Shown here: piece after piece, positions 41,910 to 45,730 of the stretch
Layout of the letters: each line of letters starts with the position of its first letter
Numbering within the stretch: position 1 is the first letter of the stretch
From: an uncultured delta proteobacterium
GTDB lineage: Bacteria > Desulfobacterota > Binatia > Binatales > Binataceae
DNA length: 64,000 bases
Assembly (NCBI GenBank): GCA_963794325.1
Contig: CAWCDG010000002.1
Coordinates: 416,001 to 480,000 of the forward strand
Direction: 5' to 3'
Notes under the pieces: generated by a model
What the model was told of the DNA's origin: nothing
Seen by the model: only the letters and a program-made list of their open reading frames with translations
Database searches by the model: none
Translations under genes and position numbers: made by a program

Positions 41910-42401
41910 GTGGCGATACGCAAGCATCGCGCCGGCGAGCTGGTAATCGAGCAGACCCGCGATTTCACGATCGTGCGGGCGATGCTGGCGCGCGGCGGCT
42001 TGACGACCGAAGGAATCGAATGGCCCGCCGCGTGCTATCTCGTCGCCTATTTCGGCGATGACCCAGTCGGCGTGATCGGAATCGAGCCGAAGATCGACGC
42101 GGCACTGATACGCTCGCTGTACGTGGATGAATCGATGCGCCGACGCGGCATCGGCGCGTCGCTAATTGCGGCGGCGCGCAAGGCGGCGCATACGCGTGGC
42201 GCGCGTCATCTGTATTGTTTCAGCGCCGAGGCTGCGTCGCTGTTTGATCGTCACGGTTTCAGAGTGGTTCCCGTCGGAGATGTCCTCGGAGCTTTGCCTG
42301 GAGTTCCTGAAGTCGAGTTCTTTCTCGCTCGGCCGGACGAGCTTGCGCGTGAGGTCGCGTACCATCTGGATATTTCGAGGGATGGTGTGATCGAGCGTTA
42401 G
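41910..42401 (+). CDS. GNAT-family N-acetyltransferase
   Basis: LIRSLYVDESMRRRGIGASL, FDRHGF. Confidence 0.85.
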   Translation: MAIRKHRAGELVIEQTRDFTIVRAMLARGGLTTEGIEWPAACYLVAYFGDDPVGVIGIEPKIDAALIRSLYVDESMRRRGIGASLIAAARKAAHTRGARHLYCFSAEAASLFDRHGFRVVPVGDVLGALPGVPEVEFFLARPDELAREVAYHLDISRDGVIER

Positions 42402-42402
42402 G

Positions 42403-43119
42403 CTACTTCGCTGGAACATAGCGGCCGAGATACCTGCCCTTCTCACTTGTCACGATCAGGTACGGATTCCACTTCAGCAACCGCGTGGCAAGGCGCGGCG
42501 TCATGTCGGGGCGGATTGTCTGTGGATTCGAGTTCATCGCATCGAGCGCGCGCGGCGACGGTCCAGCTTGGTCGATCGTCCCGAGCAGCACTCCGTCTGA
42601 ATTGAGCACCACGGCGCGCGGCGCCGAGTAATGGGCCGCGGCCGGATCGACGGAATCGTCGGGGCCAAGGCGCGCGAGATCATCGCTCATGAATTCGGCG
42701 ATCCGCACGCGGTCCGAGTAATGAATCCAGAACGATCGCAGGCCAGGCGCAAGGTTGTTCACGAAATATCGAAGCGCGCGCAGCCGCTCTGAGAGCGGAG
42801 CTGGCGGATCCATCGGCAATCCACGAATCATCCAATCGACTTTGCCGCGGAAGTAGTGGCGGACCTCGGTGAAGCTGATCAATTCGAGCTGCGCCGCAGC
42901 TCTCGCGCTCAGATCTCACAAGGAGTCGCGGCAATAGGCGACCACCGGGCAGTTGCTGTCGAGCAAATTCGGGGCATCGAGCAGGATGCGGCCGACAGGA
43001 AGATGAATCGCGCCGCGAATGTGCGTTCTCCGGTATTCGTGCGAGGGCAGAACGTCGACGATCTGCACTGCGCGAGCGGCGAGCATCGCGGAGAGTTCAC
43101 GATGCCGGATTTCACGCAC
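42403..43119 (-). CDS. Rhodanese-CBS domain protein with in-frame TGA (candidate selenoprotein, 238 aa)
   Basis: ORFs 42916-43119 and 42403-42882 share one frame: ...VDVLPSHEY...HIRGAIHLP...VVAYCRDSL-TGA-DLSARAAAQLELISFTEVRHYFRGKVDW..GLP, followed by a CBS-like pair. Confidence 0.8.
42877..42915 (-). promoter_or_regulatory. Putative bacterial SECIS element
   Basis: mRNA after UGA: GAUCUGAGCGCGA-GAGCUGC-GGC-GCAGCUC-GAAUUGAUC. Perfect 7-bp stem with a G-initiated loop 20 nt after UGA. Confidence 0.65.
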
Positions 43120-43121
43120 GT

Positions 43122-44483
43122 CTAGCGCCGCATTGCGGCCAGCGCATCGAGCGCGGTTTGCACGATGGTCTCGCCGCTGCCGGCGGCGATGCGCGCCGTC
43201 TCGACTTCGTAACCGCGCTCGGGGTACGCGGCTCGGGTAGGAATGTAGCCGATGAGATCGTTGCAGTATCCGGCGACGAAAGTTTGCGCGAAGTGCGGGT
43301 TAGCTTTTATCGCGAGGCCGAGCTCGACGAAGAGTTCGCCCGGGATGCCGACTATTGCGATGTCGCCGACTGTGACGACGGTGATCGCGGTTGCGAGTTC
43401 GTGCCGCTCGATGTTGACGCGGCGGTCGCGGTGATTTTGCTCCTCGATGGCTTCCAGAGCGGCCAGCGAGGTCAGCGATTGCGCGTGATGGTCGCGCAGG
43501 CGCTTCAGTTGATAGCCGTCGCCGCCGCGATGGTTGTCGAGCGAGGATTGGGTCTGCGCGGCGCAAGCGCGTGCGGTCGCGAGATCGGCGTCGTTGTCCT
43601 TGAGCGCGAGCTTCAGCGGGATCCGGCGCGCCGCGATGCGCGCGTCGGCGATCGAGTGCGCATGCTCAAGCGCGTCGAAGCTGCCTCGACCCATCGCGCG
43701 GCCGTTGTTTTCCGCGACTTCGAAATTGCCGCGGCTGCGCGGATCGACGTTGCCGGTCGCACCCTGGATGAAAATCGAAACTGGTCGCGGGCCGCCGGCG
43801 GAAGCCGCGGATGCGATTTCGTCCATCGCGAAGCCAGGCCAGTCGCGCGAGTAGAGCAGATTGTCCTCGCACAGCACGACGCCGTGGCACGGATAGTTCA
43901 TCAGGGTCGCGATTGCACTGCCGTCCGCGCGGTATGCGCCGAGTACCGACGCTTGCGAATCGGCCGGACCGGAGTGGTTGGCGGCTATCTGAATCTGATG
44001 GCTCGGGCGCAGCAGCCGGCGATGAGTGCCGAGCGTGAACGGTGCAGCCGCCGCGCGGATCGTTGCGCGTTCGAGATTGGCGTTCGCCTCGATGATTGCG
44101 TCAGCAATCATGCCCGGCAGCGCGCGTTCCCATTCCAGGTCGCGGCCCTCGGAGGGCTTCGCGTCCGGGCGAGGGGTCGCGAAAATATTGAAGGCGGGCG
44201 CGGAGTGAGTATGAGTGGCGCAGACCAGGATCGAATCGGCCGGGATGTCGGTTTTTGCGGCCACGCGATTGCGGATGTCGTCGGCGATGCGGATCCCGAT
44301 CGCGAGCACATCGACGCCCGCGATTGCGATCTTGTTCTTGCCGTCGCTCAGCACGATCGCCTGCGCGGCGAGGTCGTCGTGTACGCCTGCGTTCAGGCCC
44401 ACTCGATTGCCATAACCGAGCATCGCGAGTCCGACCGGCGGTTCGAGTTTCACGCGCGCGGCGCCGGCATAGAGCGCACTCAT
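43122..44483 (-). CDS. Neutral/alkaline ceramidase-like amidohydrolase
   Basis: PPVG..MLGY..R...GVHDDL, ATHTHSAP, NYPCHG, SRDWPG, QGATGNVDP, IPGELF, GYIPT; ATGA overlap with the upstream DegT gene. Confidence 0.8.
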   Translation of the reverse strand: MSALYAGAARVKLEPPVGLAMLGYGNRVGLNAGVHDDLAAQAIVLSDGKNKIAIAGVDVLAIGIRIADDIRNRVAAKTDIPADSILVCATHTHSAPAFNIFATPRPDAKPSEGRDLEWERALPGMIADAIIEANANLERATIRAAAAPFTLGTHRRLLRPSHQIQIAANHSGPADSQASVLGAYRADGSAIATLMNYPCHGVVLCEDNLLYSRDWPGFAMDEIASAASAGGPRPVSIFIQGATGNVDPRSRGNFEVAENNGRAMGRGSFDALEHAHSIADARIAARRIPLKLALKDNDADLATARACAAQTQSSLDNHRGGDGYQLKRLRDHHAQSLTSLAALEAIEEQNHRDRRVNIERHELATAITVVTVGDIAIVGIPGELFVELGLAIKANPHFAQTFVAGYCNDLIGYIPTRAAYPERGYEVETARIAAGSGETIVQTALDALAAMRR

Positions 44484-45730
44484 TTCAGTTTGGCCGAGGC
44501 GATCTCGGCTGCTCCGGAAGCCACTTTGGCGGCCGCGCCGACAATGTCGTCGAAATCGCGGTCGCCGCCGAGCAGGCATTCATGCGGTATCGATACGAGC
44601 GCACGCTCGAACAACCGCTCGGCAACGGGGCAATCGATCGAGATGTTATCGGGATTTGCGCCGGCGAGTTCACACGCTTTGCGATACGCGGCGGACTCGC
44701 GCGGGAACAGTGACGATCGATAGACCGGATCGTTGGACACGCCGCATGGGATGCCTTCAGCACGCAACGCCCGCACGAAGCGATTGCGCGAGAGGCCGAG
44801 CGTGGTCTCATCGACCATGAAAACGAAAGCGTAGATCGTCTCGCGAGTGACGCGTGGATCGCGAGCGACGGGACTCAGTCCCTTGATTGCTGCGAGGCCC
44901 TTACGCAGCCGGGCGGCGGCGCGGCTCTTGTGCTCGATCTGATCCGGCAGGCGCGCAAGCTGCGCGAGCAGGATGCCGCACTGCCATTCCGTCATCCGGT
45001 AATTCGCGCCCATCAGCGGGCCCTCGAAATCGTCGTCGGGGCGGCGGCGTCCGCAATTGATGAGTGACTGGCATCGCTGCTCGAGTTCGGAGTCGTTGGT
45101 GGTGATCATTCCGCCTTCGCCCGCCGTCATCGGCTTCGAGGATTGAAAACTGAAGCATCCGAGAGCGCCGTGAGTTCCGACGCCTCGATCGCGGAACTGA
45201 GCGCCCGGGACATGCGCGCAATCCTCGACGATCGGAATCGAATGCGCGCGCGAAATTTCTGCGAGTGCGTCGAGATCCGCGAGTGACGCGCCGTAGTGGA
45301 CGGGGATGATCGCTTTAGTGCGCCGCGTGATCAGGCGCTTGACGGATTCGGGATCGATGCATGCGTTGACGGCGCTTACGTCGGCGAACACCGGACGCGC
45401 CATACATGCGATCGCTGCGTAAGGGGTCGCGGCGAAAGTGATTGCGGGGACGATGACCTCGTCGCCGGCTCCGATGCCGAGTGCTTTGAGCGCGACCTCG
45501 AGTGCACTGGTGCCGGACGTGGTCGGGATCGCGAAGCGCGCGTTCTGATATGCGGCGAATGCGGCGGCGAACTCACTGGCCTTGCGATTCGGGCTGGGAT
45601 ACCCACCCCAGCTTTGCGACGTGAGTACATCTTCGAGCTGCGCGCGTTCGCGAGCGTCGAAGACCGGCCACGCCGGGAAGGGGAGGGTGCGAAGCGGCTG
45701 TCCGCCAAGGATTGCGAGCGTCGAGGGCAT
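44480..45730 (-). CDS. DegT/DnrJ/EryC1/StrS PLP aminotransferase
   Basis: SGTSAL, GIGAGDEVIVP, EDCAH, FSFQSSKPMTAGEGG, GANYRM. Confidence 0.92.
   Translation of the reverse strand: MPSTLAILGGQPLRTLPFPAWPVFDARERAQLEDVLTSQSWGGYPSPNRKASEFAAAFAAYQNARFAIPTTSGTSALEVALKALGIGAGDEVIVPAITFAATPYAAIACMARPVFADVSAVNACIDPESVKRLITRRTKAIIPVHYGASLADLDALAEISRAHSIPIVEDCAHVPGAQFRDRGVGTHGALGCFSFQSSKPMTAGEGGMITTNDSELEQRCQSLINCGRRRPDDDFEGPLMGANYRMTEWQCGILLAQLARLPDQIEHKSRAAARLRKGLAAIKGLSPVARDPRVTRETIYAFVFMVDETTLGLSRNRFVRALRAEGIPCGVSNDPVYRSSLFPRESAAYRKACELAGANPDNISIDCPVAERLFERALVSIPHECLLGGDRDFDDIVGAAAKVASGAAEIASAKLK

Follow-up and report, generated by a model that had tools for sequence, protein, structure and literature searches.

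In a stretch of 64,000 nucleotides (nt) from an uncultured delta proteobacterium of the Binataceae (contig CAWCDG010000002.1), which is called the window below, we studied a gene of the minus strand that is interrupted by an in-frame TGA. Judged by comparison with related genes, the UGA at codon 68 of this gene very probably encodes selenocysteine (Sec) in one polypeptide. Our explanation of the gene as a whole, which we consider likely and hold with good confidence, is that of a single 238-residue selenoprotein in which a helical linker joins a rhodanese domain to a tail of divergent CBS-pair type, with an insertion of Sec that would be directed by SelB and a hairpin. Computation brings out three things in its favour: a column occupied by UGA or a Cys codon among relatives, a conserved hairpin downstream of the UGA and a Sec machinery in the genome. 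The original prediction, made from the letters of this DNA alone, had at its core a single selenoprotein gene split by annotation, and the column, the hairpin, the machinery, the contigs and the public protein sets agree with it.

The TGA at 42918-42916 is the sole break in a frame of 238 codons. When TGA is translated as U, the product counts 238 residues with a single U at position 68, in ...VVAYCRDSL-U-DLSARAAAQLE..., so translation bears out that the two separately called open reading frames (ORFs) are one frame broken only by this codon. Genetic code table 11 returns two ORFs, one of 67 amino acids (43119-42916) and the other of 159 amino acids (TTG 42882 to 42403). Across orthologues the start column holds ATG or GTG (M/VREI...), and in the window the GTG lies 2 nt past the TAG of an upstream ceramidase-like gene. 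The rhodanese fold had been said to continue across the TGA, and the Pfam Rhodanese match indeed runs over residues 8-97, scoring 45.9 bits for PF00581, above the cut-off of 22.2 for membership of this domain family. The stop had also been placed in the catalytic loop, five residues after a Cys, and Cys63 does align with the catalytic loop Cys of solved rhodaneses, which puts U68 at loop position +5. Finally, a check of the codon in reads had been proposed, and independent soil contigs keep it: 42916-42918 is unchanged in contigs of a single study's three public soil runs, one of these runs may be the source sample, and the whole gene lies within one 3600-base contig of one soil run.

In a class-wide search of 61 genomes, full-length orthologues (60-74% identity) were found only in the window's own genus, Candidatus Binatus. 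We aligned 30 loci of this genus, and the column of codon 68 holds TGA in 21 of them and TGC in 8, the last locus being without that part of the gene. A scan of GTDB with one genome per species gave 57 loci, a set that overlaps the 30 of the genus and that is labelled Binatus, Binataceae or unnamed (delta)proteobacterial metagenome-assembled genome, save for one Acidiferrales. The loop motif is present in 56 of these 57 species loci, with TGA in 45, TGC in 11 and no other codon, and TGA is still there although the set extends down to 49% protein identity. Among 37 metagenome loci fetched with the database protein P0008, the column is shown in 30, all of them with TGA, and five more distant full-length proteins (52-55% identity) carry Cys. 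TGA and TGC are the only DNA codons seen at the column, and both Cys63 and the U/C68 column are invariant. The Cys-form orthologues are single ORFs of 235-240 amino acids. Homologues had been expected to show Cys or TGA at this place, and they do; the in-frame UGA is aligned with Cys in homologues, the pattern by which selenoproteins are recognized. A few relatives carry extra disruptions (4 TGA and 1 TAA in genome G033, 2 TGA in genome G011).

To follow the exchange between the two forms, we used a tree of 29 rows, from which five partial or disrupted loci (L042, L045, L047, L048 and L049) were dropped and to which four distant Cys proteins were added. On it, the genus has its Cys forms placed within the Sec forms, with about four Sec/Cys changes, at least three of which are forced by the starred branches. 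A genome flagged as unpublished (G024) contributes one row to the same-genus counts, to the tree and, below, to the codon statistics of the stem and to the selA tally, and no conclusion rests on it.

The UGA is followed by a short hairpin of the selenocysteine insertion sequence (SECIS) type, the stem of which begins 13 nt and the loop 20 nt after the codon. The stem GAGCUGC/GCAGCUC and its G-starting loop had been correctly described, but the distance of 20 nt then given for the hairpin is that of the loop start, the stem itself lying 13 nt after the UGA. According to the legend of Fig. 2 of PMC13188914, a bacterial SECIS (bSECIS) has a loop of 3-9 nt with G in its two opening positions, a stem of 4-16 bp, 16-37 nt between the UGA and the loop, and an energy of at most -7.5 kcal/mol. 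The hairpin studied here has a loop GGC of 3 nt starting with GG, a stem of 7-8 bp, a spacing of 20 nt and an energy of -11.8 kcal/mol, all of which lie within these limits. Compared with shuffles, the isolated hairpin of 24 nt (-11.8 kcal/mol) has a z of -2.49 and is the only stretch to stand out. Energy alone is nevertheless unpersuasive for such G+C-rich DNA (61% G+C), and it is by comparison with relatives, not by folding energy, that the hairpin is shown to exceed chance.

In the relatives, the hairpin takes the family form CGRGCUGC-GGC-GCAGCUCG. The codons +6 to +9, which encode Ala-Ala-Ala-Gln and make up the stem, never vary in the 21 TGA forms of the genus. Among the 78 conserved columns whose amino acid has at least four codons, only 7 are invariant at the codon level, 3 of these being the Ala codons of the stem, and the run of four invariant codons has a permutation p of 0.006 in the TGA forms. 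Third-position identity reaches 0.90 in the stem vs 0.60 in the gene for the TGA forms, as against 0.78 vs 0.75 for the Cys forms; synonymous sites are thus frozen in the stem only among TGA forms. In the species set, the full 7 core pairs are possible in 44 of the 45 TGA forms vs 3 of the 11 Cys forms (Fisher p 1e-6, kinship uncorrected), the hairpin being degraded in the other 8 of the 11. Counted pair by pair, 98.5% of 344 cells are paired, and the 8 pairs comprise 3 that never vary, 3 with one-sided changes, 1 that departs via unpaired cells only and 1 with a double change in a single sequence. The locus L051, which belongs to another family of the class and is described below, carries GGGCCGC-GGC-GCGGCUC, the same hairpin with one compensatory change from U-A to C-G. 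The hairpin is conserved beyond the needs of the protein and is tied to the UGA, and the proposed SECIS therefore stands, both by the published consensus and by a conservation that is specific to the TGA forms.

An additional GAUC/GAUC pairing at the base of the stem had been put forward as well. It is present in this copy but it is not conserved, since most relatives have GACC after the UGA and the 3' partner varies, and we did not retain it; in the fold of a 44-nt stretch, CUGA/UCAG pair in place of GAUC/GAUC. An Rfam scan of 42300-43300 (E up to 10) returned nothing at the hairpin and three unrelated families at chance level, a result that we do not count against a SECIS.

The source genome (G000), which is 85% complete, contains the Sec machinery that the original prediction had called for: tRNA-Sec (72 bits; called SeC with anticodon tca by ARAGORN), selA (570 bits), selB (375 bits) and selD (377 bits), all above cut-offs. 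The selD gene is adjacent to selB and has one in-frame TGA of its own. The region of these two genes is G000:C4:1158546-1161572 (loci L009 and L017), the TGA of selD falls in the motif KAAGUAGK, and selD is itself a candidate selenoprotein.

We also looked for the machinery in the relatives. A selA match (E up to 1e-30) is found in 20 of the 21 TGA-form genomes, one match being a partial piece at a contig end, and the only one of the 21 that lacks a match is 64% complete. Of the 8 genomes with a Cys form, three carry an intact selA. In four others (G002, G005, G008 and G014; 98, 94, 96 and 82% complete, respectively), neither selA, nor selB above its cut-off, nor a match at the level of tRNA-Sec was found; the selB search gave only N-terminal GTPase matches of 141-187 bits that reach no further than positions 2-264, and the best tRNA-Sec score is at most 49.6 bits, which is the level of tRNA-Ser and tRNA-Leu in G000. 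The Cys-form genome G029 has selA in two adjacent pieces and keeps a full-length selB and tRNA-Sec, together with an N-terminal GTPase-type match. It seems that this genus is in the course of losing the Sec trait. As far as these sequences tell, Sec appears to have been replaced by Cys several times, partly where the machinery was not found, with a decay of the hairpin afterwards, which is the usual picture of a selenoprotein family.

What public protein sets contain of this protein is mainly its truncated C-terminal part. When the best 120 of 387 protein clusters (E up to 0.001) were inspected, 29 contained the loop, in 28 cases with Cys and in 1 with Trp, and the other 91 were pieces of 136-173 amino acids starting at assorted codons just past the TGA. 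Most pieces are named 'hypothetical protein', and one source has 'CBS domain-containing protein'. The varied starts of the pieces argue against a genuine separate gene. We take the locus as one gene because the rhodanese fold spans the TGA, because the Cys forms are single ORFs and because the database pieces start just past the TGA. The claim that standard annotation splits the gene thus holds both for the two ORFs of table 11 and for the public sets, and annotation, domain statistics and selenoproteome counts for the phylum would be wrong at this locus, where the rhodanese half is lost.

The positions of the features are given in Table 1. In order to examine the fold, we used an AlphaFold2 model built from an 18-row alignment, with a mean predicted local distance difference test (pLDDT) of 73.8; averaged in blocks of 10 residues, the pLDDT is 76-94 for residues 1-100 and 47-75 for residues 140-238, the tail being modelled with moderate to low confidence. 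The best Foldseek match is 3nhv (E 8.8e-8, probability 1.00, template-modelling (TM) score 0.70 on target), and a probability of 1.00 is also obtained for 3tp9, 6mxv and 5ve3, which are single-domain or fused rhodaneses and with whose loop Cys Cys63 aligns. The linker forms helices at 109-123 and 125-134 in the model and contains nine invariant residues (E111, A115, Y118, N122, L123, P125, R128, W131 and R137). It is a Binataceae-specific element, most of which the homologue P0123 lacks, with a 27-residue gap opposite residues 112-138. As for the tail, Pfam CBS (PF00571) gives the whole protein 25.7 bits vs a cut-off of 24, while no single stretch passes, the best one being 193-232, and 6 of 18 family members are matched. 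P0123, a full-length homologue with 31% identity, has two clear CBS stretches (E 9.5e-14) that align along the tail, and the tail can be read, by sequence likeness, as a divergent CBS pair.

Table 1. Features of the rhodanese-CBS gene (positions in the window)
Feature	Position	Strand	Remarks
Whole gene, 238 codons + TAG stop	43119-42403	minus	Start GTG 43119, stop TAG 42405-42403
Rhodanese homology domain, residues 8-97	42829..43098	minus	Pfam PF00581, E 8.5e-12
Cys63 TGC codon, canonical rhodanese catalytic Cys	42931..42933	minus	Invariant in protein alignment; codon invariant in TGA and Cys groups
Codon 68 UGA, very probably read as Sec, active-site loop position +5	42916..42918	minus	TGA/TGC column across relatives
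SECIS-type hairpin GAGCUGC-GGC-GCAGCUC	42886..42902	minus	7 bp in this copy, 8 bp in the majority of relatives
Helical linker, residues 105-139 (LSERxRALPYFVNNLAPGLRxxWI)	42703..42807	minus	Conserved; no known family match
Putative divergent CBS-pair-like C-terminal domain, residues 140-238	42406..42702	minus	Pfam CBS 25.7 bits

Rhodanese selenoproteins are so far known from prediction only. Five forms are catalogued in the available text of PMC13188914, namely form 1 (UxxS), form 2 (UxxG), form 3 (CxU, NF041203), form 4 (UxxG) and form 5 (TsoB, UxxxxU, NF045694), and three of them appear in the available text of PMC9312934. Forms 1-4 are like the window protein in that Sec lies in or at the rhodanese loop and that they were found by Sec/Cys pairing and a SECIS; in the same available texts they are predicted, without biochemistry. 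Unlike the window protein, none of the forms listed in these two papers has CxxxxU or a CBS tail. By motif string alone, the UxxS of form 1 as listed there would fit U68-D-L-S71 of the window. In form 3 (rhodanese_LYCAU) the Sec comes two residues after the Cys, whereas it comes five after in the window protein, which scores 20.6 bits with this model vs a cut-off of 115 and so falls outside the family. The window protein also falls outside TsoB (18.1 bits vs a cut-off of 805), with a weak domain-level match to that model (E 0.00055, residues 16-104). The TsoB model, of 572 positions, has a DsbD-like part and two Sec, while the window protein has one Sec, a Cys at the first position and a CBS tail. 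The spacing of UxxxxU in TsoB equals that of C63-x4-U68, and the two columns may correspond, judged from the motif alone as listed in the available text.

The best fold match, BH2092 of Bacillus halodurans (3nhv, 3o3w), is a structural-genomics rhodanese without known function. When PDB sequences were searched with a profile, each column of its loop YCWGPACNGATKAAA was paired with one of YCRDSLCDLSARAAA in the window protein, the C-x4-C spacing being shared, so that there is a solved structure of a rhodanese with a C-x4-C loop. BH2092 differs from the window protein in having Cys and not Sec and in being a single domain without linker or CBS tail, and the identity is ~24%. The Cys-form orthologues of the Binataceae ('rhodanese-like domain-containing protein [Candidatus Binatus sp.]') share with the window gene the family, the architecture and the neighbours (66-72% identity), and differ from it by TGC in place of TGA. 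A full-text literature search, which had most subscription journals outside its reach, returned no description of a rhodanese-CBS Sec family. On the sequences of the collections searched, the family appears confined to the Binataceae, apart from a single more remote homologue, built in the same way, from another family of the class. This would be a sixth Sec arrangement among the rhodaneses, with the catalytic Cys kept, Sec at the last loop position and a CBS pair joined, and it is the dominant one in an abundant uncultured soil lineage, the Binataceae. The natural Sec/Cys pairs within one genus would be a system in which to study the erosion of a SECIS once Sec has given way to Cys, and the contribution of Sec at the resolving position of a rhodanese loop.

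Several points weigh against the reading of this gene as a selenoprotein gene with a SECIS. Selenium in the protein has no direct evidence behind it, and none of the RNA runs listed contains the gene. The counts given above do not represent independent events, the kin being closely related and only about four Sec/Cys changes being needed. The protein P0008, from a Joint Genome Institute (JGI) cluster, has Trp at the column, and the DNA behind it was not found: a degenerate DNA pattern for P0008 had no match in metagenome contigs, and a scan for its relatives, in which a TGG-bearing pattern was included, recovered neither its own contig (best 87% identity) nor any TGG locus. The Trp of P0008 may come from a gene call made under a table in which TGA is Trp. 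As to the hairpin, this copy has AGA where most relatives have CGR and thereby one base pair (C-G) fewer. The folding energy of the 44-nt stretch has a z of -0.58 (53 of 200 shuffles as good), and that of a 60-nt stretch a z of +0.81, with a minimum-energy fold that is without the hairpin in this copy. The stem contains a C-A mismatch in one TGA form (L097) and is intact in three Cys forms. Classical covariation is weak, 30 of 500 shuffles reaching the score, and the conservation of the stem is partly at the protein level, since the stem codes for the conserved Ala-Ala-Ala-Gln-Leu.

Other accounts of the gene were set against these data. A nonsense pseudogene, a dead or decaying gene whose TGA arose by mutation of a Cys codon (TGC/TGT), would take one step from TGC, there are Cys forms in relatives, and a few relatives have extra stops or frameshifts (G033, G011). 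We nevertheless consider it exceedingly improbable: of the 56 species genomes 45 share TGA at this column, as do all 30 metagenome loci that show it, the reading frame of both halves is kept at 49-78% protein identity, the C-terminal part is highly conserved among relatives and the part downstream of the TGA is thus not neutral, the hairpin is conserved only with TGA, and the Sec machinery is present. The Trp of P0008 would be explained if the UGA were read through as an ordinary residue, either Trp or Cys by a near-cognate tRNA or as part of a lineage-wide reassignment of UGA. By a crude count, however, TGA ends 19 of the 37 long frames of the window with high G+C at third codon positions (GC3), which argues that the lineage has not reassigned it. 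The full Sec machinery is present in the genome, TGC is found where the machinery was not, and all 30 loci related to P0008 that show the column have TGA though a TGG pattern was scanned, which leaves ordinary readthrough most improbable. Gene callers, for their part, report two products (91 of the 120 best clusters are such pieces, one of them named 'CBS domain-containing protein'), that is, a 67-residue peptide ending at the UGA and a separate CBS protein of 159 amino acids from TTG 42882. Such an arrangement seems very unlikely, as the pieces start differently among relatives (LIGF..., MSARAAAQ..., VRAAAQ..., MDPPAP...) with no conserved start, the rhodanese fold needs both sides of the TGA and the Cys forms are single ORFs.

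For the selenoprotein, we propose that UGA 68 would be decoded by SelB with Sec-tRNA(Sec), under the direction of the short in-frame hairpin whose loop begins 20 nt after the UGA. Sec68 would then stand at the end of an active-site loop opened by the retained catalytic Cys63 (C-R-D-S-L-U). Cys63 would take up sulfane sulfur or another electrophile, Sec68 would resolve the Cys63 adduct via a selenenylsulfide, and a cellular thiol reductant would re-reduce it, while the CBS pair may serve for dimerisation or ligand sensing. We favour a Cys63/Sec68 redox pair, with a selenenylsulfide formed during turnover, because Cys63 and the U/C column are invariant and because of the C-x4-C spacing of BH2092 and the UxxxxU of TsoB; in bovine rhodanese, the side chain at the same loop position as Sec68 contacts the persulfide. 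We put the proposed pair somewhat short of an even chance. The protein could also be a genuine selenoprotein in which Sec68 is the carrier, passing a perselenide or selenosulfide to a partner, with Cys63 as an auxiliary. No column other than 68 alternates between Sec and Cys, and selenols are, by general chemistry, better nucleophiles and leaving groups than thiols; against this, Cys63 is invariant and occupies, by alignment, the persulfide position of characterised rhodaneses. A carrier role for Sec68 is possible but rather improbable in our view, and no evidence here separates it from the redox pair. In a broader proposal, which we regard as unlikely, the C-x4-U rhodanese would be a portable selenium-based redox or sulfane-sulfur switch on varied output modules and not a metabolic sulfurtransferase; formation and reduction of the Cys-Sec selenenylsulfide would gate the attached domain. 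In the source genome, such a loop (CGKFTU) stands at the head of the potassium-channel pore protein described below, and in the window gene it precedes the CBS pair; it would be the Binatia that attach the module to these different outputs. To our knowledge, a selenoprotein sensor class of this switch type has no described precedent.

In the window, the gene is flanked by a convergent gene for a GNAT acetyltransferase (41910-42401, plus strand), which ends 1 nt from its stop, and upstream by the neutral-ceramidase-like gene (43122-44579, minus strand), with a DegT-type aminotransferase still further upstream. Among 57 related loci, the ceramidase-like gene is found upstream in 40, the DegT aminotransferase in 38, the GNAT gene in 45 and a ferredoxin gene in 44. 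No functional link is drawn from this synteny because all the loci come from one bacterial family.

Two further C-x4-U loci were noted. The locus L051:900-1601, in a genome of another family of the class (G054), encodes a 233-residue protein made of a rhodanese and two CBS domains, with the loop YCYDSQU. It is 31% identical to the window protein over its length, and the architecture thus exists outside the Binataceae. The other locus is in the source genome, outside the window (G000:C5:77708-78973; L050:1209-2474), and would encode a second candidate selenoprotein, of 421 amino acids, in which an N-terminal rhodanese (loop YCGKFTU) is joined to the pore of a potassium channel (Pfam Ion_trans_2, filter TATSIGYGD). 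Its UGA is followed by a hairpin GGAGGC-GGUC-GCCUCU, Cys stands in place of U in the relatives G006 and G012, and ~17 genomes of the same genus have a comparable frame containing one TGA.

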